DNA from: a virus
Virus record (IMG/VR): IMGVR_UViG_3300030329_003334
Location: 1-64,000 of that record
Direction: 5' to 3' (one strand)
DNA: 64,000 nucleotides
Made by a program: the position numbers and the translations under genes. The notes below the pieces were generated by a model. The model saw nothing but the letters and a program-made list of their open reading frames with translations. It had not been told where the DNA came from and did not search any database. Shown here one piece after another: positions 45,502 through 62,121 of this stretch; the stretch's first letter is position 1; each line of letters starts with the position of its first letter.

Positions 45502-45523
45502 AATATTATAGTTTTGAAAGAAA

Positions 45524-45598
45524 CAGAAAAAGAGGAGTTTCGTCCTCTAGGAATGAACTTAATCGTCCTTTAGGCCTCTGTTATCTCCTCAGTTTCTG
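45524..45598 (-). ncRNA. Structured intergenic element upstream of primase
   Basis: CAGAAA/TTTCTG and GAGGAG/CTCCTC closing stem; internal 12-nt direct repeat. Confidence 0.55.
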
Positions 45599-45615
45599 AA
45601 TCAAGGTGGATCTTT

Positions 45616-46197
45616 CTAGAATGGCAAGTCATCTGAATCAGTAGAATTTACTTCTACTTCTGCTTTAGCGCTTTCTTTTTCCATTTTATCATTATTTCCA
45701 ATCTTTAATCCAGTTGGATTAGTTGTCATAATTTCGATAAAAGGACAGAAATTAGGTAAAGCAGCATAATCTCTGTAATTATATATAACTTTTAATCTTA
45801 TAAGAGTACCTTGATATTTGGTTCCCATAAAATTAATTAAATTATCACATAATTCATTGAAAGTACTTCCGCTAACTGAAAAAGAGTTTGGATCTACAAA
45901 TTTTGTACAGATATGCTTAATTCTAATAAGCATATTATTTACTCTTCTTTTTGTAGCTTCTTCTTTACTTTCGCCTTCTTTCTTATTCACTCTCTCAGGA
46001 TCTACATCCCATTCTAAGTGTTTAAGTTTGTTCCCTTCTAGGTCACTAAAACTAAAACATAAATAAGTACTACCATTGCTAGCAGTTTCTTTACTAATGT
46101 TTTCTAAAGTACAGTTATCGTTTATTCCTACAGGAATACTTGATACTGAACTTTGTTCTTGCACTTGCGTGCTCTGATTAATTTCATACATACTCAT
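45616..46197 (-). CDS. Putative single-stranded DNA-binding protein
   Basis: Acidic C-terminal tail DSDDLPF; position in replication module. Confidence 0.65.
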   Translation of the reverse strand: MSMYEINQSTQVQEQSSVSSIPVGINDNCTLENISKETASNGSTYLCFSFSDLEGNKLKHLEWDVDPERVNKKEGESKEEATKRRVNNMLIRIKHICTKFVDPNSFSVSGSTFNELCDNLINFMGTKYQGTLIRLKVIYNYRDYAALPNFCPFIEIMTTNPTGLKIGNNDKMEKESAKAEVEVNSTDSDDLPF

Positions 46198-46229
46198 AAT
46201 AATTTAAATTTAAATTGGTTACTAAAATA

Positions 46230-46916
46230 CTATTTTAATTCGAAATTAGCAAATGCATCATCTTCTTTTTCAACATTGCTATCTTCTTGATTATCAGACT
46301 GTTGTACTTCTTGAGAATCATCTGTATGATTTTCATTAGTACTATTGTCATGAATTTCACTACTAGAAGACGTAGAAACAACTTCACCTCCAGATTTTTC
46401 TATAGCTTGATGTAAATCATTTATAGTATCTTGAGCTTTTTGTTCATTACTTTTTTCACCAGGAGGATGTTCTTTTATATAAGCTACTGGTACATCTTCT
46501 GCTTCTTCTTCTATATTTTCTTCCCACCCATCATTATCTTCTTCAACTTTAACAATTTTATAAAATACATATTCAGGATAAGTTGTACTATATATAGCTT
46601 CTTCACATACATACATATCTTCTTCTCCAGTTCCTGGTAATCCCATATATGATCTTATATCTCTGTCATGAGGTATATTTTTAATATATCCTTGCTTATT
46701 TACAGCTACACCATCTCCATCAGGAGCAGTATATATATGTAAATCTTTTTCGCCTTCACTTGGGTATGCTATACCTATTCTGTTATTATTAGCGTCTATT
46801 TTTAATCTAGACATTAGTGCTGGTGATAGTCTCATTTGGCCTTCGCCTTTTAATTTTATAGCTAAACTATCTCCGAAAGAATTCAATCTTTCTCTTCTTT
46901 TTCCAATTAGTTTCAT
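46230..46916 (-). CDS. Hypothetical protein with long acidic tail
   Basis: 228-aa ORF co-oriented with neighbours. Confidence 0.7.
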   Translation of the reverse strand: MKLIGKRRERLNSFGDSLAIKLKGEGQMRLSPALMSRLKIDANNNRIGIAYPSEGEKDLHIYTAPDGDGVAVNKQGYIKNIPHDRDIRSYMGLPGTGEEDMYVCEEAIYSTTYPEYVFYKIVKVEEDNDGWEENIEEEAEDVPVAYIKEHPPGEKSNEQKAQDTINDLHQAIEKSGGEVVSTSSSSEIHDNSTNENHTDDSQEVQQSDNQEDSNVEKEDDAFANFELK

Positions 46917-46918
46917 AT

Positions 46919-47062
46919 TTATTTATTTTTATTTGGTTTATCAAAATTTTTCATGTTTTTCATGAATTTTTTATTATCTTCTATTTTAAGACCTTGCTCT
47001 AAAGCATATTTTGCTAGTAATATAGTTCCTATTATTACTAGTATTAAAATTAATATATACAT
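46919..47062 (-). CDS. Small membrane protein, 47 aa (not in ORF track)
   Basis: MYILILILVIIGTILLAKYALEQG...; fills the gap between neighbours. Confidence 0.7.
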   Translation of the reverse strand: MYILILILVIIGTILLAKYALEQGLKIEDNKKFMKNMKNFDKPNKNK

Positions 47063-47064
47063 AA

Positions 47065-47745
47065 TTAGTTATAATATTCGTTTATAGTTTTAATTACATT
47101 ACTTATATCATTTGGAATCTTAAATTCAAACATATCTCTAGGAGATTTTGCAGTTGTAGTTCCATCAGATTGAGTTATAAAATTATATATTCTCTCACCG
47201 TCAGCATTTAAAGACACGTCTGTAAATAATACTACAGTAAACATACCCTCCATAGTTATTACATTATCTACTAATTTGCCTACAGTTTTAAATTTAAGTC
47301 TTCTACTACCTGATAAATCTGTAGATTGCTCAGCATGCCCAATCATTACAAAATTAATATCTTCTCTCATATTTTTACCAGCTGTAGCGATCTCCCATGC
47401 ATGTAATCCTATCTCTGTAAATTTATCAAATCCACGTTCATTGGCCCTACGCATGTATTCATTAGCCATTATATATTGAAAATCATCTATAATTACATTC
47501 TTAATATGAGGCATATTTTCATCTATATGTTTCATAGTTTGTACTATAGTAGAAGCTCTATCAGATTCTATATAATTACCTTGAGGATTTTCTTTAGATA
47601 ATTTAGTATAATTACCTTTCCATCCTCTAAATGGCATAGGCTTATTACCTACATTTACAATGAATGTTTCTTTAGGGTCTAAGTTTTCTAAACTAGTGGA
47701 CTTCCCTGAACCACTTTCTCCGATAATTAAAATTTCTTGTGACAT
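47065..47745 (-). CDS. AAA_24 / Sak4-like ATPase
   Basis: GESGSGKST, IIDDFQY, KTVGKLVD, TAKSP. Confidence 0.85.
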   Translation of the reverse strand: MSQEILIIGESGSGKSTSLENLDPKETFIVNVGNKPMPFRGWKGNYTKLSKENPQGNYIESDRASTIVQTMKHIDENMPHIKNVIIDDFQYIMANEYMRRANERGFDKFTEIGLHAWEIATAGKNMREDINFVMIGHAEQSTDLSGSRRLKFKTVGKLVDNVITMEGMFTVVLFTDVSLNADGERIYNFITQSDGTTTAKSPRDMFEFKIPNDISNVIKTINEYYN

Positions 47746-47746
47746 T

Positions 47747-48790
47747 TTATTCTTTTTTGTTATTATTTATTTTATCTATATCTTCTATTTTTAACTGACC
47801 TTTTTCATCAGGTATATCATATTCATCTACTCTATTATATTTTAATATGTCTACCATACTCATTACTATTCCAGATTCTCCATCTCTATTTTTTAAAATA
47901 TGCCAATATATCATTGGTTGTGATGGTTTTTCAGGATTAATAACAGGTAAATGATGTGGGCCATATGTTTGCATATTAAGCATATATGGTTTATGTGTAA
48001 TTAAAACATAATCTGATCCATGAAATACAGCATCTGATCCAAAAATATCTTTTTTCATAGGATAATTTTGCATAGGATTAGTCATTCTATCAGATTTTTC
48101 TATCTCTCTATTTAACTGACTTATAACTATAAATATACATTTAATTTCCTTTTTAGCTAGCATCATCATTCTATATAATTTTACTAAACTTTCTCTTTCA
48201 CTGTCTCCAGCTTTATGTTTAGTTAATAAAGTGTGATCTATTAATATTACAGTTCCGTATTCTTCATCTTGAGTTTTAGTTTTTCTCATCTCATGAAAAT
48301 GCATAATAGTATGATACATCTCTTCTACTGTACCAGGAATATCTACATAATATATACTATATTTTCTAGATATACTATTTACTACATTCTCTGCTCGTTG
48401 ATACATTTCATCATCTAAGTCTTCATTGCTAGAATATAACTGACCTACAGTTCTATATAATTTATGAGATATTTTTCTACCTACTTGTTTCATTGCTAGC
48501 ATCTCAAAGTTAAATGATAATACTGAAAAATTTTCATCAGGATTGTTATCAAAAAGACTAGTTTCTAAATCATTTGCTATACTTGATTTACCAGAACCAG
48601 ACATTCCTGCTATTGTCATTATCACGTTCCAATCTAATCCACCCATAGTTGCTTTATTAAACTTATCCCATCTAGTTGCTAAAGAATGTACTAATCCTTT
48701 TCTACGTTGATCTATGTATTCTAAGATTTCTTTTCCTGCATTTCTAATATGAGAATAAGTTAATGTTTTTTTAGATGACTTTTCCTCCAT
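47747..48790 (-). CDS. dnaB: Replicative DnaB-family helicase
   Basis: GMSGSGKS, NFEM, LIDH, SQLNR, LKNRDG. Confidence 0.9.
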   Translation of the reverse strand: MEEKSSKKTLTYSHIRNAGKEILEYIDQRRKGLVHSLATRWDKFNKATMGGLDWNVIMTIAGMSGSGKSSIANDLETSLFDNNPDENFSVLSFNFEMLAMKQVGRKISHKLYRTVGQLYSSNEDLDDEMYQRAENVVNSISRKYSIYYVDIPGTVEEMYHTIMHFHEMRKTKTQDEEYGTVILIDHTLLTKHKAGDSERESLVKLYRMMMLAKKEIKCIFIVISQLNREIEKSDRMTNPMQNYPMKKDIFGSDAVFHGSDYVLITHKPYMLNMQTYGPHHLPVINPEKPSQPMIYWHILKNRDGESGIVMSMVDILKYNRVDEYDIPDEKGQLKIEDIDKINNNKKE

Positions 48791-49433
48791 AATCTATGTT
48801 GTTGTTGTTATTATTATTTGTATTTTTCATGTGCTCTTGTACATCTATATATACTTCATCTCTTAAATAATTTTTAAGAGTTTTAATATACATCATTTTT
48901 CCGCTTTTTTTCAAATTATCTACATAATAAGATAAAAGTTCTAACATTTTTTGATGCTTAAGTTTATTAGATTTTAAAATGCCTATATATATTTCTTTGC
49001 ATAATTTTTTCTGTAATCTTAAACTTGATTCTGCTCCATTAGATCTCAAAGTGCTTAAAGGATATGCTTCATAAAATTCTTCAAATTCTTTAATATACTT
49101 TTCTAATGCTAAATCGTTTAGATCATCATCTCCTAATAGTAAATTATCAGCTTTAGCGTCTGCAAAACTATCTACCATAGATTTAATAAATCTTATTCCT
49201 TTAGCGGTTGGCTTAAATCCATCCAAATTAACTTCTTTGGCATCTCTTCTCACCATTATATATTTTGCTTTGACTAAAGGAGCAACATCTTTCATTGTTA
49301 TTGTATCTATTTCTTTATAAGTACGTAATAAATATACTTTATTATATACATAACAATATATTATAAAATAATCTTTTAGACTTAAGTTATTATCTATTAA
49401 TATGTTGATAAAAGGTTTTCCAAATGGTATCAT
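48771..49433 (-). CDS. Putative replication initiator / helicase loader
   Basis: FEEFYEAYP motif; overlaps dnaB start. Confidence 0.5.
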   Translation of the reverse strand: MIPFGKPFINILIDNNLSLKDYFIIYCYVYNKVYLLRTYKEIDTITMKDVAPLVKAKYIMVRRDAKEVNLDGFKPTAKGIRFIKSMVDSFADAKADNLLLGDDDLNDLALEKYIKEFEEFYEAYPLSTLRSNGAESSLRLQKKLCKEIYIGILKSNKLKHQKMLELLSYYVDNLKKSGKMMYIKTLKNYLRDEVYIDVQEHMKNTNNNNNNNIDYGGKVI

Positions 49434-49666
49434 TTTCCTTTTTTAATTTCTGCTTCCCATTCAGCCCAAGTTTCATGCATTTGTTCTGCTTGTTCCGCTG
49501 TTATAAATTGTTTTTCTTTTAAATGTATTTTATGATCATGTTCTTCTTCAAAAAATATTTCTTTTGTTTTAGTAGCTTTATATATATTCCACAATTTTCC
49601 TCTAAAAAATATTCTTTTAATCTTTTCCTTCTTCTGGTTTGCTAGCTTTTTTAACTGTTGTATCAT
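49430..49666 (-). CDS. Hypothetical protein
   Basis: 78 aa, overlapping neighbours. Confidence 0.55.
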   Translation of the reverse strand: MIQQLKKLANQKKEKIKRIFFRGKLWNIYKATKTKEIFFEEEHDHKIHLKEKQFITAEQAEQMHETWAEWEAEIKKGK

Positions 49667-49955
49667 AATTTGTAAAGTTTAGTGAAATTAATAATAAAAT
49701 TATATATCCTGCTAGATCCCATAATGAATCTGCTGTCTTACTTGTAATTCCTCCATTTTGTAATCTATGTAGTTTATCATCTATTCTACAACATAATCCA
49801 AATTGTTTAGGAGTCATTGCTTCCATATTCGATTTTGTTCCAAATATAGGATCTCCTTGAGTAGCAGAATCACCATAGTCTTGATTTTTAGCAGTAAGTA
49901 AATTAATTAATTGTTCACCTACTTTTTTAATTTTCCATTGTGTGTGTTTTTCCAT
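49617..49955 (-). CDS. DUF1599 / nucleotide-modification-associated domain protein
   Basis: KNQDYGDS...RIDDKLHRL...DSLWDLAGY. Confidence 0.8.
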   Translation of the reverse strand: MEKHTQWKIKKVGEQLINLLTAKNQDYGDSATQGDPIFGTKSNMEAMTPKQFGLCCRIDDKLHRLQNGGITSKTADSLWDLAGYIILLLISLNFTNYDTTVKKASKPEEGKD

Positions 49956-49966
49956 AATTTTAATTT

Positions 49967-50080
49967 TAAAGGGCGAGGTCGGCCAAGTATTTATGGTGGC
50001 AGTCTCCCTATCATATAAACCACATTTGACATTTTTAAAGCTAGCTCGTTAGACTCTAAAATACTCAACCTGTTTGGCCC
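49967..50080 (-). ncRNA. Structured intergenic element (three-way junction + U tract)
   Basis: GGGC/GCCC and GGUUGAGUAUUU/AAAUACUUGGCC with G-U pairs on the - strand. Confidence 0.6.
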
Positions 50081-51259
50081 TTATGTTAATATTTCATTTA
50101 ATGTTTCTATCCATTCACAGTTATAATCATTTTGAGTTCTCTTTCGTACCCATTTAACTTCCTGAGTACCACGTACATAGAGATTTATATACAAAGCTTG
50201 TTTACCTTCTATCATTCTTAATACTCTACCTCTTCTTTGTATATTATCTAATGCTTTAGAACTACCTGCAGCACATATTCCAAGAGAACATTCTGGTACA
50301 TTTAAACCAGCATTTAATGCTTTAACAGAACTTATTAATCTTACTTTAGTTCTTCCATCACCGAATTCTTTGAGAGCTCGTTTCTTGTCTTTAAGTTTCA
50401 TTTTAGAATGAAAAGTTATACACTCTTCTCCTAAAATATCTTGTAGATTCTCCGCAAAGTTAATACTTTGACTAAAAACAAGACCCTTTCTGTTAGGAAA
50501 TTTATTAACAATTTTCTTGATTAATTCTACTTTATTTACAGCATTATAGCAAATATTTTTCCTTTTTTGCATTGCCATATAAAATATATTTGCCCATTTA
50601 GCTTCTTCTTTATCTTTAGAATTCTTTAATTTTGTAGCATTCTCAAAAGCTACAAATCTACCTCCTAATTCATTAGTTGCTTTATTAAATAATGTATCAA
50701 ATCTCTTATATTCTTTAACTTCTTCTTCGGTAAAACTTACTCCTAAATTATATACTTTATATGGTGATACTAATTCTAGATCTAATGCATCTAAAGTATC
50801 TGTTTTTTTAATTGTAGGCGCAAATCCTTTTAGATATTCTTTATATTCATCATTTTCTGGTTCTGTAGCTGTTAAACAATATATATTATCAAAACTATTA
50901 TTTTCGTATAAGTTTCTATATTCATAAGATAAAGTAGTATGTACTTCATCTACTATTAATATAGAACAGGTATAATTTTCCCATTTGTATACAGTTTGTA
51001 TACATTGTATATCTATTCGATCTTTATATTTAGATAATTTCCATTTTTTTAATTCATTTGGCCATTCATTATCTCTTAAATTTTCAGTAGGAACAACTAT
51101 TAAAGCCTTATTATATATATCTTTAGATAAAATATGATCAATTGCCATTAATCCCATTTTAGTTTTACCTATACCTGTAGCTGCTATAGAAGTTCCTTTA
51201 CAATTATTATTTATCCACGCATCTATATGTTCTTTTTGTTCTTTATCTTTATTATTCAT
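50081..51259 (-). CDS. Superfamily 2 helicase
   Basis: TGIGKT, VDEVH, TAT, QRRGRVLR. Confidence 0.9.
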   Translation of the reverse strand: MNNKDKEQKEHIDAWINNNCKGTSIAATGIGKTKMGLMAIDHILSKDIYNKALIVVPTENLRDNEWPNELKKWKLSKYKDRIDIQCIQTVYKWENYTCSILIVDEVHTTLSYEYRNLYENNSFDNIYCLTATEPENDEYKEYLKGFAPTIKKTDTLDALDLELVSPYKVYNLGVSFTEEEVKEYKRFDTLFNKATNELGGRFVAFENATKLKNSKDKEEAKWANIFYMAMQKRKNICYNAVNKVELIKKIVNKFPNRKGLVFSQSINFAENLQDILGEECITFHSKMKLKDKKRALKEFGDGRTKVRLISSVKALNAGLNVPECSLGICAAGSSKALDNIQRRGRVLRMIEGKQALYINLYVRGTQEVKWVRKRTQNDYNCEWIETLNEILT

Positions 51260-51507
51260 ATTAAAATATTTATAATTTTTCTAAATCTTGCCATTACTTG
51301 TGTAAAAGTTTTGGAAGATTTATTATAATACATTGGACTTAGAGGTACAAACTGATGCTTTTCCATTGTTTCATTTACTCCCTTTTGTAATCTTTTTTTA
51401 TTAGGACCTTCAGCTAAAATAACTTCTTCTATATCAGGCATAAACCTATCGTGAGGCCCTCTGTCATTACCAAAAAGCTGTTTTTTCTTTTTTGTTTGTT
51501 TTTTCAT
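51256..51507 (-). CDS. Hypothetical basic protein
   Basis: 83 aa; 4-nt overlap with helicase. Confidence 0.6.
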   Translation of the reverse strand: MKKQTKKKKQLFGNDRGPHDRFMPDIEEVILAEGPNKKRLQKGVNETMEKHQFVPLSPMYYNKSSKTFTQVMARFRKIINILI

Positions 51508-51524
51508 GTTGTGTGTAATTTAAT

Positions 51525-51597
51525 AAAAGAGCGGGTAAGCGCTCTTTTGGTACTACGACTGATAAAACAAGTATTAGTTCTAGCTTACCCTAGAACT
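51525..51597 (-). ncRNA. Two-hairpin kissing-loop element overlapping a terminator-like hairpin
   Basis: Perfect 8-bp and 9-bp stems with complementary loops GGUAAG / CUUACC. Confidence 0.7.
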
Positions 51598-51723
51598 GTA
51601 AAAAGGAAAGAAAGAGAAATTGCATAACTGTATGTATATTACTAACGCAATATTTCATATACTATCTAGTTTTCTCTCTTTCTAACCTATTAATTAAAGG
51701 CAGAAATCATGACATAACGACCT

Positions 51724-51972
51724 TTAATCATTTTTATCTTCTTTAAATACTACAGTTTTAAATCTATCATCTTCTGGATTATTATCTGTATATTTATTTT
51801 TCCATTTATCTACCTCTGCAAAATATAGTTTTCTGAATTTATCTAATTCTTCTCGCGTATCTTTAATTTCTATTGATACTACAGAAAACGTTAACAACGA
51901 TCCAAGTATTGCTCCTCCTGCTATTGATATAGCTATTACCAGTAAAGGTACAAATATATTTGTATATTCCAT
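51724..51972 (-). CDS. Small membrane-anchored protein
   Basis: N-terminal hydrophobic helix plus coiled coil. Confidence 0.7.
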   Translation of the reverse strand: MEYTNIFVPLLVIAISIAGGAILGSLLTFSVVSIEIKDTREELDKFRKLYFAEVDKWKNKYTDNNPEDDRFKTVVFKEDKND

Positions 51973-52217: not shown

Positions 52218-52234
52218 AATTTTAAATATTAAAT

Positions 52235-52365
52235 AAAAAAGAAGAGAGTCCAGCTGACCTGAGTAACGTTGTTGTACCCTTCAGGAATAAACCACTATAG
52301 TGTTTCGTTTAATTTATTCTCTGGGGAATCTATTTCCAGTACTTCTGAGGTATGAAACTCTCTTC
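52235..52365 (-). ncRNA. Multibranch structured element downstream of polA
   Basis: GAAGAGAGU/ACUCUCUUC closing stem + U6; inner CUGG/CCAG, GAAUAAA/UUUAUUC, CCUGA/UCAGG arms. Confidence 0.65.
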
Positions 52366-52377
52366 TATTTATATTAT

Positions 52378-54276
52378 TTATTTACACCATTTATCTGATA
52401 TATTTTCATCTACAACCATATCAACGTCTTTGCAGATAACTTTACCTGCTGCTAACATTAATTTTTCTTGCTGACTTACCCAATGATCTACATAATCTTC
52501 TCTTACTTCACAAGTTATTTCATCATGTACTTGTGAAACTATTCTAACTTTATCATGTAAATTATTCATTATAATATAATCAGCAATCCAGGCTAATGCT
52601 TGTTTTATCATATCAGCTCCTGATCCTTGAATCGGTGTATTTTTAGATGCTCGTTCAATTTCGCCTAATCTTTGAAATTTATGAGAATTTGGCATAGTGT
52701 CTAAATCTTTATGATCTTCAAACCATCTAATCCTTCTATAAGGCTTAAATGTTTTAATATATCCATATTTTTTCCCATAATTACCTAATGAATTAAGAAA
52801 CTTTTTAATTTTAGGCAAAGACTCAAAATATTTATCAATAAAATGTTTAGCATCTGTCTGTGGTATATCTAAAGTATCTGCTAATTTCATATATGACATG
52901 CCATAAGCTAAACCAAAATTAATAGTTTTGGCTACATCTCTGTAAGATTTACCTCTTAAAAAATCAGGTTTATTTTTAACTTTATTTATATCTATATCAA
53001 ATACTAAAGCAGCTACTTTACCGTGAACATCTTCTCCTTTATTAAATGCAGTTAACCACATAGGGTCCTTCGATCCCTCAGCAATTAATCTTAACTCCTG
53101 GCCTGAATAATCCATAGTAACTAATTTCCATCCTTCTTCAGCATGAAAACAGTTTCTATATTTATCATCAGCTGGTATATTTTGCATATTAGGATAACTC
53201 TGATATGAATATTTACCTTTTTGCCCAGAAGACACACGACCTGTATTTAATATTTGCCAAAATACAGTATGTATTTTTTGACTACTTTTATTTAAATATT
53301 TAATAAATTCTTTACCATATGTAGTTCTTAATTTAGCTTTCTTTCTATAATCTATTATAGTTTTAATAAGAATATGCTGCTTCTGCCTTTTAAATAATTC
53401 TAACATATTAGTGTTCTGTAAACTAGGATCCAGGGTTTGTAATACTTTAGTTACCTGTGACGGGGACGACCATTTAATACCTACCTCCCTTCCTTTTTTA
53501 CCAAACATATCTAATTGAATACCAGGTAGTTTGAATTTTTCTAACTCTTTTGTAGATAGTACTATATTATCTAGTTCAGTCTCTAATTCTTGTGAAGTAT
53601 CTTCGGCATTCTTTGCTAGCTCCAGCCACCTGTCTTTATCAAAACACATACCATTCCATTCTATTTCAGCAAATGCTCTTAAGGCCCCATTTTCTAAATC
53701 TAAAACGTTCTTCAGATCTAAATTATTAATTGATTCCATTTGTTTCTCTCTTATAGGTATCAAATATTCTACATCTTTAGCACCATATATAATTTGATTT
53801 TCTGTAAATGGTTCACCTTTTTTTATTTTACTAAACTCTCCTCTAGTATCCTTTTCCATTTCTACTCCCATGTACCTAAGCAATACTTTATCTAATCCAT
53901 ATCCATATCCTCTTTTTCCACAGTTTAAGACTACCTCTGCTAACATAGTATCATATATACCATTCAATCTAAATCCAAAACTACTTAAAATAAATTTATA
54001 ATCAAATTTTAAATTATGGCCTAATTTGATCCATCTATCGTCTTCAAATAAAGGGCGTAATATACTTATATCAATATCTCTAGTATCTATAACGAACTGC
54101 ACATTCTCATCTCCAATTTGAAGCATAATAACTTTATTTTTATGCCAGTCTACTCCATCAGTTTCAGTATCTATAGCTACAAAAGTTTTATAATTAAAAT
54201 AATCTATTACATCATTTAATGTAGCTGTTTCTAAATTATTAAAAACTGTTTGTTTATTACTTATATATTTAATCAT
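52378..54276 (-). CDS. polA: Family A DNA polymerase with 3'-5' exonuclease
   Basis: DTET, HNLKFD; motif A DYSGQELR, B RDVAKTINFGLAYG, C VHDE. Confidence 0.95.
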   Translation of the reverse strand: MIKYISNKQTVFNNLETATLNDVIDYFNYKTFVAIDTETDGVDWHKNKVIMLQIGDENVQFVIDTRDIDISILRPLFEDDRWIKLGHNLKFDYKFILSSFGFRLNGIYDTMLAEVVLNCGKRGYGYGLDKVLLRYMGVEMEKDTRGEFSKIKKGEPFTENQIIYGAKDVEYLIPIREKQMESINNLDLKNVLDLENGALRAFAEIEWNGMCFDKDRWLELAKNAEDTSQELETELDNIVLSTKELEKFKLPGIQLDMFGKKGREVGIKWSSPSQVTKVLQTLDPSLQNTNMLELFKRQKQHILIKTIIDYRKKAKLRTTYGKEFIKYLNKSSQKIHTVFWQILNTGRVSSGQKGKYSYQSYPNMQNIPADDKYRNCFHAEEGWKLVTMDYSGQELRLIAEGSKDPMWLTAFNKGEDVHGKVAALVFDIDINKVKNKPDFLRGKSYRDVAKTINFGLAYGMSYMKLADTLDIPQTDAKHFIDKYFESLPKIKKFLNSLGNYGKKYGYIKTFKPYRRIRWFEDHKDLDTMPNSHKFQRLGEIERASKNTPIQGSGADMIKQALAWIADYIIMNNLHDKVRIVSQVHDEITCEVREDYVDHWVSQQEKLMLAAGKVICKDVDMVVDENISDKWCK

Positions 54277-54829: not shown

Positions 54830-54856
54830 AATAATATAATTTATTGGTTAATACTT

Positions 54857-54967
54857 AAAAAAATACCTCAACTCTAATAGGATCCATGATCTAGATAAAA
54901 ACGGAAACTATAAAAATCTAGGTATAGTTCTTCAATGTATAAACTATACAATCCTATTAAAGTGAGG
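54857..54967 (-). ncRNA. Three-way-junction structured element + U7
   Basis: CCUCA..UAAUAGGAU / AUCCUAUUA..UGAGG; inner GUAUAGUU/AACUAUAC and CUAGAU/AUCUAG. Confidence 0.65.
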
Positions 54968-54978
54968 GTGAAATATTT

Positions 54979-55272: not shown

Positions 55273-55568
55273 TATTTTGTTTTTAAAACATCTAATAAAT
55301 AACATTCAGAATCATTATGTAAATAATTATATATATCTATTATTTTATATTTACCTCTTTCATTAAATGTTATAGTATTACCTATAGATAGCACAGGGCC
55401 TCCTTCATACGCTATTTCTATTATTTTTCCTTCTTCTTTATCATCATATTTTATGGATGAAGTTGGATCATCAGAATAAATAATTATTCCTCCTTCGTCT
55501 TCAGGTAAAAACTTAAATGTACGTCTTTGTTTGTCTTTATTTAATATATTTATTACTCTTCTCTTCAT
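55272..55568 (-). CDS. Hypothetical protein (likely start MKRRV)
   Basis: ATG just downstream of a predicted promoter. Confidence 0.6.
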   Translation of the reverse strand: MKRRVINILNKDKQRRTFKFLPEDEGGIIIYSDDPTSSIKYDDKEEGKIIEIAYEGGPVLSIGNTITFNERGKYKIIDIYNYLHNDSECYLLDVLKTK

Positions 55569-55576
55569 ATTAAATG

Positions 55577-55608
55577 CAAACATACAAAAAATAATATACA
55601 TTAGCAAC
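55577..55608 (-). promoter_or_regulatory. Bacteroidota sigma70 promoter facing the replication module
   Basis: On - strand GTTG-N20-TATGTTTG(CA), in the gap 55569-55610. Confidence 0.65.
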
Positions 55609-55610
55609 TA

Positions 55611-55844
55611 TTACATATTTTTTTTCAACATAATAGTGTGTATATCATGGCATCTTCTGTTAGTTTTAAATGGAGATTTCATTGTATTATAAGATTCAAA
55701 TTTATATAAAGGTACACTTAATTCTATTTCTCCACTATATTTAAAATAGTTATCAAAATTAATTACAGTACTTTTATATAATTCATTTAATCTTTGTTCT
55801 GTTTTTTGTTCTTCTATAAAATTTTTTATTATATCTTCGTCCAT
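55611..55844 (-). CDS. Hypothetical protein
   Basis: 77 aa. Confidence 0.6.
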   Translation of the reverse strand: MDEDIIKNFIEEQKTEQRLNELYKSTVINFDNYFKYSGEIELSVPLYKFESYNTMKSPFKTNRRCHDIHTIMLKKNM

Positions 55845-56014
55845 AAGTCTTCTTCTTTTAAATTATATTTTTTCATTAAGTTTATTAATTTTCTCTTTAA
55901 TGTACTTTTTTTAGCACTTGGAACATCAAACGGACTATCCATTACAACTCTTTTCATTCTAGTTATTGTTTTAGATAGATTTTTACAAATTTCTATTGCA
56001 GATTCTTTTGACAT
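55829..56014 (-). CDS. Hypothetical protein
   Basis: 61 aa. Confidence 0.6.
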   Translation of the reverse strand: MSKESAIEICKNLSKTITRMKRVVMDSPFDVPSAKKSTLKRKLINLMKKYNLKEEDLWTKI

Positions 56015-56035
56015 AATTATTTGGTTTTAGTTAAT

Positions 56036-56091
56036 AAAAAAAGAACGGAGCTACAAATTGGCTAGTCGTAATACTTGTAATACTCCGTTCT
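56036..56091 (-). terminator. Extended terminator-like hairpin
   Basis: AGAACGGAG/CUCCGUUCU + U tract; inner UACAA/UUGUA. Confidence 0.7.
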
Positions 56092-56119
56092 CTCTCCTCG
56101 TACAACACACAACAAGAAA

Positions 56120-56599
56120 TCATTTAAAGACTTTATTAAATTTATCAGAACAATCTTCTAATTCATTATCTATAATATCTCTTATTCTCATTAATATAGA
56201 AATTAAAGAATTGTCTGTTAAATCTTTTAAATTTATATTAAAATTAGATAGCTTAATCTTTTCATCTTTATATTTGTCTTTCTTATTAATATATTTATCT
56301 ATTTGTTTAAGTTTATCTACAAAATCACTAGGATTATCTACATCAGCTAAAGATTTTAATAATCCATCAGCATTAGAAGAATATTCATCCTTATTATTAT
56401 CAGGTAACTTAATTTCTACATTAATAGATATTTTATTAATACTAGAATTCTTATCCATATTAATAATAGCTTCACATGCATTATTAATAGTTTCCTTATA
56501 GTTTCTAAATTTATCACAAAGTTCTACTATATTCTTTGTTTGATTAAACTTAGCTTTTACTATATCATAATTTTTAACTGTATCTTTTTTACTAGCCAT
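56120..56599 (-). CDS. Hypothetical protein
   Basis: 159 aa. Confidence 0.65.
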   Translation of the reverse strand: MASKKDTVKNYDIVKAKFNQTKNIVELCDKFRNYKETINNACEAIINMDKNSSINKISINVEIKLPDNNKDEYSSNADGLLKSLADVDNPSDFVDKLKQIDKYINKKDKYKDEKIKLSNFNINLKDLTDNSLISILMRIRDIIDNELEDCSDKFNKVFK

Positions 56600-56626
56600 A
56601 ATATTTATTTTTATACATTTATAATA

Positions 56627-57022
56627 TTAGAAATCATTCTTTTTCTCACTTAAATGAGATTCAAAACCTTCTCTATCAACACCATATGCTTGATAGCTGT
56701 TTTCTTTTCCATATGCTCTTTCAAGTATATTTTCGAATAATGCTTTAGTTATTTCAGGTGGAGGTAAATGGTGTGCCATTTGTTCTGTCATTCTATGTAC
56801 AGTATTTGCATTACCAAATGCCATGCCTAAAACTAATATATCATTAGCATTTTTTGGATTAACTTTTTTAATTATTTTTTCTATAAGTAAAGATTTACTA
56901 ATATCTCCTTCTTTTGCACCTATTTCATGCATAAATTTAGGTATATCCATAGGATCTAAATTAGTAGGAACAGCTTTTGAGAAATGTTTTTCTTCATGGT
57001 CAAAATTAAATTTTATTTCCAT
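56627..57022 (-). CDS. Hypothetical protein
   Basis: 131 aa. Confidence 0.65.
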   Translation of the reverse strand: MEIKFNFDHEEKHFSKAVPTNLDPMDIPKFMHEIGAKEGDISKSLLIEKIIKKVNPKNANDILVLGMAFGNANTVHRMTEQMAHHLPPPEITKALFENILERAYGKENSYQAYGVDREGFESHLSEKKNDF

Positions 57023-57575
57023 CTTTCTTGTTTTTGTTGTTAATATTTATTTCTTCTATCATACTACATATATTTTCATATTCAGAACTATCTATCATAC
57101 TATCTTCAGATTTCTCTAAAGTCATTTCAAAATTATTTATAATAATATGACCATGTCCTTTAAATATAGAATAGATATTTTCACCAGGTAATATAACATA
57201 TGTTGCTGTATGAACTAATTCATCTTTTATCTTATACGGAATTACTTCTCTTGTAACTATATCACCAGCTATTTTTGTTCCAATATAATTAAGTGCTTTA
57301 TCAGGTGGTACTCTTTTCCAAACAGGAATGCCTATACTATTTCTAGACTGAAACATTAATCTAGATCTAACTAATCCAAAAGGACAATTAACGCTAACAA
57401 AATCTATTAAATAATACTCAACTGGTTCTTGATCAGTTTCTTTTGTTATATTAATATATCCTTTTATACCATTAGAACTTTTTATTCTAATGGCTTTAGG
57501 ATTATCAGATAATCTAACACCAACTATTTCAATCTCTCTGTCTTCTTTTATAAATTCTACTTCAGTCATCACCAT
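57006..57575 (-). CDS. Hypothetical phage protein
   Basis: 189 aa; GDIVTREVIPY...YVILPGE. Confidence 0.65.
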   Translation of the reverse strand: MVMTEVEFIKEDREIEIVGVRLSDNPKAIRIKSSNGIKGYINITKETDQEPVEYYLIDFVSVNCPFGLVRSRLMFQSRNSIGIPVWKRVPPDKALNYIGTKIAGDIVTREVIPYKIKDELVHTATYVILPGENIYSIFKGHGHIIINNFEMTLEKSEDSMIDSSEYENICSMIEEININNKNKKDGNKI

Positions 57576-57759
57576 ATGCTTTAATTAATTTTAAAAGTTG
57601 CTCTGCTACATCTCCATTAAATTCTGCATTCTTTCTGATCCAATCTCTGTTTTCTTGTATACACTTTAATAATAACTCTTGATTCTGTATAATTATTTGT
57701 AAATATTCTCCAATAATATAATCTTTATCAGAGGTTTTCTGTTGTGTTGTTTTGCTCAT
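57562..57759 (-). CDS. Hypothetical protein
   Basis: 65 aa, overlapping chain. Confidence 0.55.
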   Translation of the reverse strand: MSKTTQQKTSDKDYIIGEYLQIIIQNQELLLKCIQENRDWIRKNAEFNGDVAEQLLKLIKAYGDD

Positions 57760-57937
57760 TTTTCAATAGTTTTTTATAATCATTAATATAGTCTAATAAG
57801 TGTTTTGCATATGTAGTATAATACATTGCGCCTTCAAAGTGAAATCTCACTTGTTCATCTTCTATTGCGGCTTCATACGCTTCTCTTAAACTTTTTTCTT
57901 TTTCCACCAATATACTTACTAATTTCATTTTTGCCAT
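57728..57937 (-). CDS. Hypothetical protein
   Basis: 69 aa; FHFEG...YAKHLLDY. Confidence 0.65.
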   Translation of the reverse strand: MAKMKLVSILVEKEKSLREAYEAAIEDEQVRFHFEGAMYYTTYAKHLLDYINDYKKLLKNEQNNTTENL

Positions 57938-57939
57938 AT

Positions 57940-58242
57940 CTATTCTTTTTTAATTACTCTATCAAATTTATACCTACCCCAAAAGTTTTTCCTAAATATA
58001 ATTAAATCATCTATTTTAATCAATGCAAATTCTCCAAATGTACAATAATAGGTATCACCATTTTCTAATGCAATTGCATAATTTGTATAAGGTTCTTCTA
58101 TTATCTTATCTATAACTTTGAGTGTAATTTCTTTATTATATTTAAAATCATTAGCCATTGTTTGGCTATAACTATTATGACTTAGTAACATAAAAACAGT
58201 ACTAATCAAAGATAGCATTATTATTTTTATTATTGCTTTCAT
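57940..58242 (-). CDS. Secreted hypothetical protein
   Basis: Bacteroidota-type signal peptide ending SYS-Q. Confidence 0.65.
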   Translation of the reverse strand: MKAIIKIIMLSLISTVFMLLSHNSYSQTMANDFKYNKEITLKVIDKIIEEPYTNYAIALENGDTYYCTFGEFALIKIDDLIIFRKNFWGRYKFDRVIKKE

Positions 58243-58263
58243 TTTAAATTCATTTAATTGTTA

Positions 58264-58683
58264 TTATTTTACCCATTCTCCTTCTTTTATATCTTTCATC
58301 TCTTTAGATATTAATCTAATTTTATTAGATCTAATTACAGACATTAATGTTTTCTTTAACTCATACATCTTATTTTCTATATCTTCATAGAACTTTGGAG
58401 ATGATTTCACTACATCAAAAATGTGAATATAATATCTACATTTAAGATCATAATTACCAACATGGTAATTTCTAGAACTTATATCTATATTCTTTTGATT
58501 ATAAGATTTTAAATTTACTTTTTGAATAAATTTGTATACATCTTTACTTATTTGTAAAGTATATAGTATTTCCATAGCTCCATCTAATAATAATTTATAT
58601 CTATATCCTTTATTTCTAATAGTAAACAAATCCTGCGTTATATTTTCTTGAAATATAACTGGCTTTTTAGTTTCCTTTTCCAT
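58264..58683 (-). CDS. Hypothetical protein
   Basis: 139 aa. Confidence 0.6.
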   Translation of the reverse strand: MEKETKKPVIFQENITQDLFTIRNKGYRYKLLLDGAMEILYTLQISKDVYKFIQKVNLKSYNQKNIDISSRNYHVGNYDLKCRYYIHIFDVVKSSPKFYEDIENKMYELKKTLMSVIRSNKIRLISKEMKDIKEGEWVK

Positions 58684-58954
58684 TATTAAATAGTTTAATT
58701 ATAATTTCTGTTAATATATCTATTTTTCCTTCTAATATTTTTATATCTGTTGTAGCTTTATGTCTTTCATTAAGCAATTCATTCTTAGTTGCTTCTAACT
58801 CTTTTTGTACATCTATTGTACATGCATTACCTCTTGCTGATGGATAATTTTGTATCATTTCTAATACATCTTCATAGTTTAATATGTCATAATCAGCTTG
58901 GCCAGCACCATCATGACCTATTTGTATTGAATTTAATATATCTTCTGCTTTCAT
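58667..58954 (-). CDS. Hypothetical coiled-coil protein
   Basis: 95 aa. Confidence 0.6.
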   Translation of the reverse strand: MKAEDILNSIQIGHDGAGQADYDILNYEDVLEMIQNYPSARGNACTIDVQKELEATKNELLNERHKATTDIKILEGKIDILTEIIIKLFNNGKGN

Positions 58955-58972
58955 ATCTTTATATTTTAAGTA

Positions 58973-59188
58973 TTATTTAACTTTACATTTATTCTCATCA
59001 ACACACTTTTCATCCTCTTCTAAATCCCATATAACTACCATGCCATCTCCTCCTTCACTATCCCAAGTATCTGGATGGTTATCTCTTATTTTCTCTGCTT
59101 CTTCCATTGTATCTACATTTGCTATGAAATATGTACTAACTCCACAACACATACATCCTATTTGCTGTACTAAATATCTTTTCTTCAT
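58973..59188 (-). CDS. Hypothetical protein (GCxxCGV motif)
   Basis: 71 aa. Confidence 0.65.
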   Translation of the reverse strand: MKKRYLVQQIGCMCCGVSTYFIANVDTMEEAEKIRDNHPDTWDSEGGDGMVVIWDLEEDEKCVDENKCKVK

Positions 59189-59206
59189 CTTTTTATATTT
59201 TAAATG

Positions 59207-59338
59207 TTAATATAAACTGTAAAATCCTGATAAATATAAAATGAGAAGAAATATTGATGTTCCTAATACAGATCCCCAAAATCCAACCCAAATTACTATT
59301 CCTAATAATTCTAATATTATTTTTAATATATCTTTCAT
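59207..59338 (-). CDS. Small membrane protein, 43 aa (not in ORF track)
   Basis: MKDILKIILELLGIVIWVGFWGSVLGTSIFLLILYLSGFYSLY; AGAAATTATG start context. Confidence 0.65.
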   Translation of the reverse strand: MKDILKIILELLGIVIWVGFWGSVLGTSIFLLILYLSGFYSLY

Positions 59339-59367
59339 AATTTCTTTTTTAAATAAATTGATAAAAT

Positions 59368-59580
59368 TCGCCTTGGGACTACCTCTATTCGCTAGAATAG
59401 AAGTAGCGTGCTCGTCAGCACTATTTCTGAGTCGCTAAACTCAACCCGATTATACTCCATAAAAGAGAATAACCCACATATCGGACTTCAATGTGTTTAT
59501 TAATGAGCCTATATATAAGGACTCATCCTTAGAGATGCACATGAGGCTTAGCATAAAGCTTTGAACCGTTCGCATCGTTT
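59368..59580 (-). ncRNA. ~210-nt multi-hairpin structured RNA candidate
   Basis: GC-richer intergenic gap with at least six hairpins, including 12-bp CUACUUCUAUUC/GAAUAGAGGUAG. Confidence 0.6.
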
Positions 59581-59585
59581 GTTTA

Positions 59586-59852
59586 TTACCTATAAGCTGG
59601 GCAATTTTGCGCTGCTTGCCAACTAAATCCTCCACAAGAAGATTGAGTTGACATACAAGATGAGAATAAAAACATACATATAATAGCTATTGCTATTGAT
59701 GTAAGTATTCCATATCCTAATCCTTTTTCTATTCTCTTGTGTTTTATATCTCTATCTATTCTTTCATAGTTAGCCCTCATTACTTCTGGATCTGATTTAT
59801 AAGGACTAATCTTCTGTCCTTTACTATTTACCATATATTTTATTTCTGCCAT
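59586..59852 (-). CDS. Membrane/lipoprotein-like small protein
   Basis: Hydrophobic helix ending FLFSSC (lipobox-like), Cys-containing tail. Confidence 0.65.
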   Translation of the reverse strand: MAEIKYMVNSKGQKISPYKSDPEVMRANYERIDRDIKHKRIEKGLGYGILTSIAIAIICMFLFSSCMSTQSSCGGFSWQAAQNCPAYR

Positions 59853-59869
59853 GATTTCTAATTTTTTAA

Positions 59870-59947
59870 TTAATAACTATCTCTTTCTTTTGAAGAAGGT
59901 AATAGAACTATTGCTAGTCCTATCACCACTAATATTTTGAATAACAT
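59870..59947 (-). CDS. Membrane peptide, 25 aa (not in ORF track)
   Basis: MLFKILVVIGLAIVLLPSSKERDSY fills the gap. Confidence 0.5.
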   Translation of the reverse strand: MLFKILVVIGLAIVLLPSSKERDSY

Positions 59948-59959
59948 TATAAATTCCCT

Positions 59960-60109
59960 TTACAACTTAGTAGGGATAGAATGCATTCCTATACCTATTA
60001 TACAAAATGGTAAAATGATAACTAAACCATTATGACTTTCATAACCAATACCAAATGCAAATAGTTTTTCAAAACTTGCTTTAAGAACGAACTTTTTTCT
60101 AATTTCCAT
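59960..60109 (-). CDS. Small protein, 49 aa (not in ORF track)
   Basis: MEIRKKFVLK...LVIILPFCIIGIG; AGAAATCATG start context. Confidence 0.6.
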   Translation of the reverse strand: MEIRKKFVLKASFEKLFAFGIGYESHNGLVIILPFCIIGIGMHSIPTKL

Positions 60110-60145
60110 GATTTCTAATTTAAAGTTAATACTGTTAATTGTGTG

Positions 60146-60742
60146 TTAATACCTGTAATGTCCTGTTATTTTCCAATCAAATAAACAATCTTCAATTACT
60201 TGTCCATAACCTATGTTATGTATCACTTTGTATTCAGAGTGATAGTTGCTTGGTACATTTACTACTATACCAATATGATTTAATCCTCCTCCTAAATCCC
60301 AGGTTACAATATCACCTGGTAAATATTTAGTTGGATTAGGTATTGTCGGCAATGATTCTCCATATCTTTCAAATAATGTTTGAAGATTTGGTACTCTTCT
60401 ATGATCTATATTTGGATCAACTTTATCATCTGTTAATTGATAACAATTTAGACCTATTTCTCTAGTGTACTTAATATCTTCATGTATTAATTGTTGTAAA
60501 TCAATACCTAATTTCCTATAAGCTCTTATAACAACGTCAGTACATACACCTATGTTATCTGGTACATCACCCATTGGATAATCTATTGCATAATAAGAAC
60601 CATCATACTTTATAGTCCAATCTTCCAATGATTTCGCTGCTACTGCTAATTTATCATAAAAGCTAGGATTGTCTTGTGCATTTATATTTAAAAATATAAA
60701 TAAACAATAACTAATAATCAATAAAATTCTATTCGTTTTCAT
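60146..60742 (-). CDS. DUF1287 (YijF-like) secreted protein
   Basis: Signal peptide INA-Q; GVCTDVVIRAYR, IDHRRVPNL, GDIVTW, HIGIV, HNIG. Confidence 0.9.
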   Translation of the reverse strand: MKTNRILLIISYCLFIFLNINAQDNPSFYDKLAVAAKSLEDWTIKYDGSYYAIDYPMGDVPDNIGVCTDVVIRAYRKLGIDLQQLIHEDIKYTREIGLNCYQLTDDKVDPNIDHRRVPNLQTLFERYGESLPTIPNPTKYLPGDIVTWDLGGGLNHIGIVVNVPSNYHSEYKVIHNIGYGQVIEDCLFDWKITGHYRY

Positions 60743-60890
60743 GATTTCTTTTGTGTTTATCCTTCCTGTTATAAGCCTTCTTACTTTTATGTACTCTAGA
60801 TGAGGGAGGCCTTATACCTAATTCTAGATCAACTCTTCTTCTTATTGCTCTTTTTCTCTTTATACTTAGTCTTTTATTTTCTCGTGCCAT
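60729..60890 (-). CDS. Basic 53-aa peptide with ArfA-like motif (not in ORF track)
   Basis: MARENKRLSIKRKRAIRRRVDLELGIRPPSSRVHKSKKAYNRKDKHKRNHENE; AGAAATCATG start context. Confidence 0.7.
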   Translation of the reverse strand: MARENKRLSIKRKRAIRRRVDLELGIRPPSSRVHKSKKAYNRKDKHKRNHENE

Positions 60891-60901
60891 GATTTCTTTT
60901 T

Positions 60902-60991
60902 TTATTTATCATCATTACATACTGAATATACTATACATACTAGTAATAGCATTACTACTGCAGTAATTATAAGTGGTGGTAATATTGTCAT
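60902..60991 (-). CDS. Membrane peptide, 29 aa (not in ORF track)
   Basis: MTILPPLIITAVVMLLLVCIVYSVCNDDK. Confidence 0.55.
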   Translation of the reverse strand: MTILPPLIITAVVMLLLVCIVYSVCNDDK

Positions 60992-61010
60992 ATCATTTAA
61001 ATATTAATAT

Positions 61011-61174
61011 AAAAAGAACAGTACTAATAAATCCATGTATCTTAGCGGTATTTATAAAGTATTTTCTTGAATTTAATCAAGACGTTTTATACTATTTATA
61101 TCTACGGTTATAAATAATAATCACTGATCAAGTGATATTTAAACTAACTGTTCAATGTCACACCTAAATGTGAC
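61011..61174 (-). ncRNA. Multibranch structured element + U5
   Basis: GAACAGU/ACUGUUC closing stem; inner AUCACU/AGUGAU, UAUUUAUA/UAUAAAUA, UCUUGA/UCAAGA; leading GUCACA/UGUGAC hairpin. Confidence 0.6.
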
Positions 61175-61178
61175 TAGT

Positions 61179-61388
61179 TTATTTTATTCTTTTGTTTTTA
61201 TTTGGGATTATATCTGCATATGCAAACACAGCAGCTGCAAATAAAAAGATTAATGAGTAGATTAAACAGAAATTACTCTGAAATGACCCACTGTTAGATC
61301 CATATAATCCTACATACATTAATAAGAATGCCTGTATAACAGACATGATTGATCCTATTATGTATTTGTTCTTACTTATTTTCTTCAT
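61179..61388 (-). CDS. Two-TM small membrane protein
   Basis: Two hydrophobic helices. Confidence 0.7.
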   Translation of the reverse strand: MKKISKNKYIIGSIMSVIQAFLLMYVGLYGSNSGSFQSNFCLIYSLIFLFAAAVFAYADIIPNKNKRIK

Positions 61389-61424
61389 GATTACTCTTTT
61401 TATAGTCTTTTATTCTATTAAATT

Positions 61425-61513
61425 AAAGAGTACACAATAGTAATGTCCCACAGAGTTATTACTTCAGTGTGGAACTGTGTTTGTCCTCTCCATTACTATT
61501 GTGATTACTCTTT
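61425..61513 (-). ncRNA. Long stem-loop (8 + 13 bp), RNase III-site-like
   Basis: AAAGAGTA.CACAATAGTAATG / CATTACTATTGTG..TACTCTTT. Confidence 0.6.
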
Positions 61514-61560
61514 ATGTTATTGCTATACTATATTAATGTATAGTGTTGTATGTTGTATTA

Positions 61561-61606
61561 AAAAACAAGTGAAATACCCCTGTTGAGAGGTATAACACTC
61601 GTTTTT
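61561..61606 (-). terminator. Terminator-like hairpin
   Basis: AAAAACGAGUG..AUACCUCU-CAAC-AGGGGUAU..CACUUGUUUUU; G-U pairs on - strand. Confidence 0.65.
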
Positions 61607-61724
61607 GTTCAGATTAAGCATTAACTGTTCGATTCTTAACCAAATCAATGGAAGAACGGATGCATAGCTTCCGTATAATCTGTTATATTCTACTTATAGT
61701 AGTAAGAGTTTGAGCAAAGCTCTC

Positions 61725-61967
61725 TTACGAGAACTTTAACCACGTGAACTCAATCACTTCACCAGTTTCTTCGTCCGTGACTGAAGAGACTTCAGTGTGA
61801 ACTTTAGTTGCGCCTTCAATATTGAGATAGTCGCCTATCTCAGGATTGATGCCTTCCTTCAAGTTGGTGAAGCCAACTGTAGATTGAATAATGTCACCCA
61901 TTTGTTGCTCAACGGCAACAGTGGCTGCTTTGCCACTTTCTGATACATACAAAACTTTTGCTTTCAT
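61725..61967 (-). CDS. First gene of the leftward block, small beta protein
   Basis: 80 aa; visibly higher GC than the rest of the window. Confidence 0.75.
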   Translation of the reverse strand: MKAKVLYVSESGKAATVAVEQQMGDIIQSTVGFTNLKEGINPEIGDYLNIEGATKVHTEVSSVTDEETGEVIEFTWLKFS

Positions 61968-62117: not shown

Positions 62118-62121
62118 CATA

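Follow-up and report, generated by a model that had tools for sequence, protein, structure and literature searches.

Structured RNA elements between the early genes of an uncultured marine crAss-like phage: candidate terminator-type hairpins with expanded loops

Hairpins are known from the early transcripts of several phages. The early transcript of phage T7 has intercistronic RNase III processing hairpins, which lack U runs and are not swapped between slots. The nut/boxB RNAs of phage lambda and the put RNAs of HK022 are anti-termination signals that are separate from terminators and are recognised in cis by a protein or the polymerase. REP/BIME, ERIC and Correia elements and miniature inverted-repeat transposable elements (MITEs) are multi-copy and have conserved termini. 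The present analysis concerns folded RNA elements in a window of 64,000 nucleotides (nt), which is the first 64 kb of the virus record IMGVR_UViG_3300030329_003334 (G000). The complete record has 94,021 bp with 117-bp direct terminal repeats and comes from an uncultured marine crAss-like phage. A preliminary description of the window had placed elaborate folds at eleven sites between positions 45524 and 61720, in gaps of the - strand block that encodes the replication genes (about 40.3 to 62.2 kb). Three of these elements, called here module A (51609-51683), module B (45524-45598) and module C (56036-56091), are conserved in related phages. All positions are those of the window and of its - strand unless another is named. 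The reading proposed here, to which we give about even chances, takes the elements as hairpins of the terminator type in the early transcript, with loops that have been expanded into RNA modules, some of them functional, and with an exchange of these modules between intergenic slots.

The replicative module of the cultured relative phi14:2 belongs as a whole to the early class. It is transcribed by gp66, an injected virion RNA polymerase (RNAP), and no (promoter) motif common to the regions upstream of the early transcripts was found (bioRxiv 10.1101/2020.03.07.982082). By homology with this module, the - strand block is read as an early operon that a virion RNAP would transcribe, and the elements would be RNA structures within its polycistronic early (replication) transcript.

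The closest described analogues are the PeSL cassettes of T4-type phages, which combine a terminator-type stem-loop with a recognisable early promoter and whose copies share sequence within a genome, so that they mediate homologous recombination (PMC2839356, PMC4122927). Both the PeSL cassettes and the elements of the window are small intergenic terminator-type stem-loops of early hyperplastic regions rich in small open reading frames (ORFs), and both are at the edges of gene insertions, deletions and replacements that distinguish relatives; here, all three of the large rearrangement breakpoints between the window and the relative L002 are in element-bearing gaps. The PeSL cassettes are multi-copy and sequence-sharing, whereas the elements have no common primary sequence inside the genome (self-BLAST of the 94-kb genome), as the preliminary description had noted, no promoter was found with them and their conserved part is the interior of the hairpin. 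Matches to a sigma-70-like consensus are fewer than in shuffled sequences, the early promoter signals of crAss-like virion RNAPs being poorly defined.

Like the elements, intrinsic terminators and attenuators are placed between genes and consist of a stem with a U run after it on the transcribed strand, and they are present in their ordinary form in comparable gaps of distant relatives of the phage. Their loops have 3-8 nt, whereas the loops here are folded and have 30-130 nt, the purine/pyrimidine stems have modest G+C, three loops are conserved in sequence and the enzyme is probably a two-barrel virion RNAP. Short loops (3-8 nt) on G+C-rich stems do not describe the closing stems, which span 52-127 nt, and a scan with the intrinsic-terminator consensus detects only hairpin 1 of 51525-51597 and a sub-hairpin of module B and misses the U-run hairpin at 51525-51548. 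Like the T7 hairpins, the elements are elaborate intercistronic hairpins of an early polycistronic phage transcript, which would persist as protective 3' structures after cleavage. A difference from the T7 hairpins is that a continuous duplex of about 20 bp is present in 54857-54967 and 61425-61513 only. The nut/boxB and put RNAs are also conserved hairpins of early transcripts, but in the window the conserved loop is within the terminator-type stem itself and no N-like protein was identified. REP/BIME, ERIC and Correia elements and MITEs are transcribed intergenic stem-loops too, able to affect mRNA stability or termination and mobile between sites; a MITE reading was rejected because the modules are single-copy in each genome, with variable termini (the closing stems) and conserved interiors.

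Folding energy, strand preference and design of the gaps

All eleven sites fold as they had been described. Compared with 200 dinucleotide shuffles each on the - strand, nine of them are far more stable (z -2.7 to -5.4), which are 45524 (-2.7), 51525 (-3.0), 51609 (-3.1), 54857 (-5.4), 56036 (-5.0), 59368 (-3.7), 61011 (-4.3), 61425 (-5.0) and 61561 (-5.1). The two weak sites, 49967-50080 (-1.2) and 52235-52365 (-1.7), are by energy no better than coding controls, and the observation of eleven folds mostly holds with these two as its exceptions. The limits of the sites had been set by the preliminary description, so ten whole gaps of the - block were folded too, and these have a mean z of -3.1 on the transcribed strand. 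Thirty length-matched coding segments from the same block have a mean z of -0.9 (standard deviation 1.25; Mann-Whitney p=2e-4 against the gaps). The late + block is almost free of such folds, as had been stated: its seven gaps have a mean z of -0.8, and one of the seven is structured (84327-84402, z -4.7). Folds had been said to fill nearly all larger gaps of the - block; parts of two gaps (60902-60991 and 59870-59947) are instead small ORFs for hydrophobic peptides.

The transcribed strand of the gaps is more stable than its complement by 1.2 z units (Wilcoxon p=0.0098), while coding controls have no strand asymmetry (-0.22, p=0.58). Base composition does not account for this asymmetry, which speaks for selection on RNA. 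Module A adds to this support, since its inner G-U pairs, which on the opposite strand would be C-A mismatches, are invariant among its copies and G-U, A-U and G-C pairs are exchanged for one another; selection at the RNA level, which had been proposed from the G-U pairs of several elements, is thus supported. The same data bear on an explanation at the level of DNA, by which the elements would be recombination hot spots, cruciforms or protein-binding sites that mark the boundaries of shuffled gene modules. Examples would be the two TCCT-NN-AGGA half-palindromes of module B as operators, or N4-like hairpin promoters for the virion RNAP. Several elements are equally stable on both strands, module B holds two 12-bp direct repeats 23 bp apart, the three L002 breakpoints are where this explanation would place them and gp66 in vitro transcribes single-stranded or denatured DNA (bioRxiv 10.1101/2020.03.07.982082). 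Set against these points are the higher stability of the gap set on the transcribed strand, which coding DNA does not have, the G-U pairs retained in module A, stems that co-vary rather than keep a protein-readable sequence and the lack of a shared sequence inside the genome to drive homologous exchange, and we regard a DNA-level role as very unlikely.

Six sites (45524, 51609, 52235, 54857, 56036 and 61011) clearly have a closing stem with a U run after it, as do the hairpins at the ends of 51525 and 61561. For 59368-59580 and 61425-61513 this is not clear, and 49967 also lacks a stable stem with a U run. The design was scored in each gap as a helix of 6 bp or more that spans 45 nt or more and has a U run after it. 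In the window genome, the wide stem with U run is present in 5 of 10 gaps against 2.2+-1.3 in shuffles, and narrow terminators number 2 against 3.0+-1.2. Among non-redundant close relatives, the wide design is present in 15 of 40 gaps against 4.6+-2.1 (at most 9 across 20 shuffles), and narrow terminators number 5 against 6.8+-1.6. Distant relatives, whose PolA is 43-63% identical, show the reverse in 252 gaps, with 44 wide stems against 18-45 in shuffles and 75 narrow hairpin-plus-U terminators against 32-52. The wide design is thus enriched in the close clade, about three-fold over shuffles, where the narrow one is not, and the expanded loop is a trait of this clade. As narrow terminators are enriched in the distant relatives, a terminator-type signal between early genes is the norm of the family, which favours a terminator function for the core of the elements.

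Modules A, B and C

Compensatory changes on both sides of pairs keep the helices of all three modules (6 of 30 predicted pairs in A, 4 of 6 closing-stem pairs in B and 4 of 20 predicted pairs in C), with each module resting on 3-6 sequences only and the statistical power for covariation therefore low. The relatives searched lie outside the contigs of the closest PolA relatives, such as P0002 (84% identity, 13.9-kb contig).

Module A (51609-51683) has an 11-bp purine/pyrimidine closing stem, in which AGAAAGAGAGA pairs with TCTCTTTCT with the addition of a wobble pair and which is followed by TTCCTTTTT. Inside the stem is a folded core of about 50 nt that hardly varies. Module A is 95% identical over 65 nt in G001, a complete genome of 93 kb, and it is the most conserved DNA between G000 and G001, which otherwise align at no more than 72% except for two coding stretches of 44-54 nt at 85-89%. 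In L002/L010 it is 88% identical and occupies another slot, so that its three copies are each in a different gene context. The base of the stem varies as AAAG/CTTT, CAAG/CTTG and GGGG/CCCC. In L008, the slot of module A, which follows an 82-aa gene, has an unrelated hairpin within the same AGGTT...TTCCTTT frame. The module is single-copy in each genome, and a degenerate pattern of it gave no added copies when compared with viral contigs.

Module B (45524-45598) has a closing stem in two parts, CAGAAA..GAGGAG with CTCCTC..TTTCTG, and a U-rich tail next to it (45510-45523). Its conserved core of about 48 nt (about 45538-45585) is composed of GATAAC, a hairpin of two 12-nt repeats CCTA[A/G]AGGACGA, the 13-nt loop CGATTAAGTTCAT and ACGAAAC. 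Six copies are known (the window, L002, L042, L041/G002, L013 and L043), and their cores are 92-99% identical, compared with about 66% for the adjoining primase DNA. The closing stems are unrelated in sequence between lineages, yet each of them pairs and precedes a T run, and the inner helix is invariant. In L013 the module is directly after PolA and in L043 about 1 kb after a Sak4 homologue; these two copies are 92% identical, stems included, and since their contexts differ, the whole module relocates. A covariance model (R1), applied to 340 kb, added no copies, and each genome has one copy. The 3' arm of module B can pair alternatively with the distal arm or with the proximal AGAGGA; a two-state switch (riboswitch or attenuator) was not adopted because the alternative pairing is retained in only 3 of 5 lineages.

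A 19-mer of module B gave only chance-level matches when compared with genome contigs, in addition to the L002 contig, which is filed as a Nanoarchaeota metagenome-assembled genome (MAG). The 19-mer is present in NZCU01000020.1, a GenBank Nanoarchaeota MAG contig, which is probably the same contig as L002 (IMGVR_UViG_2785511176_000001, 18,547 bp) and mis-binned.

Module C (56036-56091) is a hairpin of the terminator type, AGAACGGAG / CTCCGTTCT followed by U7, and its loop, about 30 nt long, holds the conserved TACAAGTATTACGAC. Syntenic copies are found in L008, L009 and L002/L010, and the loop 15-mer is nearly invariant among them.

For six other elements (52235-52365, 54857-54967, 59368-59580, 61011-61174, 61425-61513 and 61561-61720), no homologue was detected in about 1.5 Mb of relatives, not even between syntenic flanking genes. 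Compensatory changes, for which the preliminary description had asked under covariation, are observed for modules A, B and C. One system with a single shared design had also been suggested, and this does not hold, given the six elements without homologue and the two that are thermodynamically unremarkable.

These results also bear on the simplest explanation, that the elements are plain constitutive intrinsic terminators or mRNA-stabilising hairpins whose interiors are neutral filler with incidental inner hairpins. The U runs after most closing stems, the ordinary narrow terminators in comparable gaps of distant relatives, the lack of conservation in six elements and the stabilities of 49967 and 52235, which do not exceed the controls, are all in agreement with it. 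A, B and C show the opposite of neutral filler, with interiors whose conservation far exceeds that of the adjacent coding DNA and with compensating changes in the stems, and the wide design exceeds shuffles about three-fold in the close clade. We consider it unlikely that plain terminators with non-conserved interiors account for the elements, and the conserved loops, the co-varying stems and the swapping between gaps indicate that A, B and C are more than that.

Exchange between slots and possible roles

The intergenic places of the early region hold different RNAs in different relatives. One slot has module A in L002 and a different module, G, in L009, and G recurs after PolA in L011 and L063. 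The slot after PolA is occupied by 52235-52365 in the window, by a family F in L002/L003/L009, by module B in L013, by G in L011/L063 and by another RNA in L015/L019. The slot before the pair of a 186-aa gene and PolA is occupied by 54857-54967 in the window, by a different conserved module in L008 and G002 and by a plain terminator in L002/L009. In further relatives (about 1 Mb), many intergenic families are present on both sides of PolA. Whole modules are thus exchanged between intergenic slots, and the slots behave like docking sites for RNA genes.

Known RNA genes are present in slots of this type. The genome G002 (IMGVR_UViG_3300006754_000045) has three of them in the early region upstream of PolA (35155-38339, equal to L055:15155-18339, - strand), which are a full-length GOLLD RNA (216 bits), a tmRNA (75 bits) and a pistol ribozyme (69 bits). 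The slots of distant relatives have tRNA-like genes at varying positions around PolA, recognised by eye from sequence and fold (L084:4055-4127; L092:5313-5766 and 11306-11413; L122:12859-13137; L140:6978-7079 and 7815-8101). These RNAs and the early intergenic RNAs of phi14:2 resemble the elements in being in same-type slots on the same strand of the early region. The elements differ from them in matching no Rfam model, and modules A, B and C are much smaller. No Rfam family matches at the gathering threshold across the window, and scans of 136-231 bases at E up to 10 gave nothing credible for any element, A, B and C included, in agreement with the preliminary proposal of an undescribed system.

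Two further stretches were observed in relatives. L087 and L092 have in common an unnamed RNA-like conserved stretch beside the tRNA-like loci. L015:11903-12183 and L019:1076-1791 have a large, very stable, conserved non-coding stretch directly after PolA, which ends in a U8 run and has no Rfam match.

The RNA genes of the relatives raise the question of whether the elements are themselves independent small-RNA genes, that is, new families of non-coding RNA in the operon that are released by termination at the closing stem or by nuclease processing and act in trans on host or phage targets. Relatives carry bona fide RNA genes in these slots (tRNAs, tmRNA and GOLLD), modules A and B are single-copy, strongly conserved and context-independent, and the early intergenic RNAs of phi14:2 are highly abundant (bioRxiv 10.1101/2020.03.07.982082). 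Such genes would fit at most a few of the eleven elements, no promoter was recognised upstream of A or B, and the phage genome has no target complementarity of at least 12 nt to the conserved loops. Small-RNA genes are an unlikely explanation of the elements.

Under the reading of expanded terminator-type hairpins, the common core of the elements would be a hairpin of the factor-independent terminator type, in which a purine-rich 5' arm pairs with a pyrimidine-rich 3' arm and a U run follows. This core most likely forms or attenuates 3' ends and protects the upstream mRNA. In the close clade, the loop of the hairpin would have grown into a folded insert of 30-130 nt, and at least three of the inserts (A, B and C) appear to be functional modules under strong purifying selection. 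They are probably sites at which a trans-acting protein or RNA tunes read-through, or else the bodies of released stable small RNAs. The preliminary interpretation is partly supported, by the signs of selection on RNA, by the conserved interiors of A, B and C and by the lack of Rfam matches; the conditional terminators, processing sites or excised small RNAs that it had proposed would be candidate roles.

Several points weigh against the expanded-hairpin reading. An operon with ten strong terminators would have to rely on read-through or on internal promoters, of which none was identified. If a two-barrel virion RNAP transcribes the block, a U run may affect it differently from a bacterial RNAP. 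The sites 51525, 51609, 61425 and 45524 are about equally stable on either strand, as any palindrome is. For the six elements without homologue, the evidence for function consists of folding energy. The search for antisense targets of at least 12 nt for the conserved loops found none in the phage genome, save one 12-mer of the core of module A, whose complement, at 92196, is on that strand of the late block which is not transcribed.

A more far-reaching version of the expanded-hairpin reading, which we hold to be possible but doubtful, is that A, B, C and their counterparts in relatives constitute a new class of exchangeable regulatory RNA cassettes. Each cassette would join a terminator stem to a sensor or binding loop, a phage or host factor or the two-barrel virion RNAP itself would read the loop and set read-through gene by gene in the early operon, and the cassettes would be traded between slots alongside tRNAs, tmRNA, GOLLD and ribozymes.

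Remaining elements, neighbouring features and significance

The early block encodes on its - strand a primase (44500-45501), Sak4 (47065-47745), DnaB (47747-48790), a helicase (50081-51259) and PolA (52378-54276). The site 49967-50080, after the helicase gene, has a weak fold with z +0.4 on the opposite strand; in L002 its position is taken by a 271-aa gene, no homologue was found in the relatives searched and it is not supported as a structured element.

The site 51525-51597 has two perfect hairpins. Hairpin 1 (51576-51597) has an 8-bp stem and the loop GGTAAG, and hairpin 2 (51525-51548) is a classical terminator with a 9-bp stem, the loop CTTACC and a U run. The two loops (51583-51590 and 51533-51540) are complementary over 6 nt, or over 8 nt with the closing pairs (GGGTAAGC / GCTTACCC), and a loop-loop contact of GGGUAAGC with GCUUACCC is predicted in the 51508-51723 RNA. 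L008 retains the hairpin-1 loop GGGTAAGC behind an altered stem, and its contig stops there.

The wide hairpin after PolA (52235-52365) has the closing stem GAAGAGAGTTT / GGACTCTCTTC, followed by U6, and an interior of about 105 nt; its whole gap has z -2.4. The wide hairpin at 54857-54967 has an 18-bp closing stem (CCTCACTTTAATAGGAT / ATCCTATTAGAGTTGAGG) around two inner hairpins, followed by TATTTTTTT, and its whole gap has z -3.9. The element at 59368-59580 is a run of about seven hairpins over 213 nt (z -2.6 on the other strand), with no enclosing stem and no U run, and UAGCG(A) is present in two of its loops (59432-59437 and 59389-59394). It lies inside a 2.2-kb stretch that is absent from L002, and neither Rfam nor a tmRNA search gave a match. 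A search with the adjoining 88-aa protein gave no usable relative. A candidate family D (59189-59585 with G001, G002 and L018) was rejected as a shared motif of the 5' untranslated region (5'-UTR) before homologous genes, which is distinct from the 213-nt element.

At 61011-61174, a small hairpin (61157-61174) is followed by a wide one, which has the closing stem GAACAGT / ACTGTTC, then U5, with four inner hairpins inside. Over the whole gap z is -1.3, since its remaining part (60902-60991) is a 29-aa ORF. The element at 61425-61513 is a near-perfect inverted repeat of about 22 bp with a 36-nt loop and no U run, and it is about equally stable on both strands (z -5.2 on the + strand). Its 5' arm opens with AAAGAGTAATCA, which is an exact 12-nt direct repeat (61502-61513 and 61388-61399, - strand) whose second copy overlaps the ATG of the next gene; the repeat could allow an alternative pairing or be the trace of a duplication. 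The leader after the first early gene (61561-61720) has several hairpins and terminates in a terminator-type hairpin, AAAAACGAGTG...CACTTGTTTTT, with a structured loop, and its whole gap (61389-61724) has z -7.0. Its syntenic place in L002 and L013 has different hairpins that are not alignable, and no alignment of the leader 61545-61724 with L002 or L013 was obtained. Many matches of 61968-62160 in distant relatives are low-complexity A/T runs and were set aside.

Other features were observed in and around the block. Tiny ORFs for hydrophobic, membrane-helix-like peptides are in or beside gaps taken as non-coding on the - strand (60902-60991, 29 aa; 59870-59947, 25 aa; 59207-59338, 43 aa). The motif ATTAAC(C/T)AA is found about 20-25 nt upstream of start codons, often directly after the U run of a module, and may be a shared 5'-UTR or initiation signal; it is present at 56027-56035, 54844-54852 and 44510-44518 (- strand), at L065:11975-12000 and L065:12214-12238, and in L013 after module B. 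The junction of the convergent late and early blocks (40231-40330) folds strongly on both strands, and the gap at G000 84327-84402 (+ strand), which is outside the window, is the sole strongly structured gap of the late block; both folds are likely ordinary terminators. At the left genome end, 860-1815 (+ strand) has imperfect direct repeats of about 26-42 nt in series inside a repeat-rich ORF. The window has no tRNA or tmRNA genes.

The conserved, swappable loop modules are concrete candidates for termination or attenuation signals of the crAss-like virion RNAP, and new small phage RNAs may be among them as well. Structured RNAs, which include GOLLD, tmRNA, pistol, tRNAs and several unnamed families, are generally at home in the early intergenic slots of marine crAss-like phages, and these slots are a rich place to look for further RNAs.

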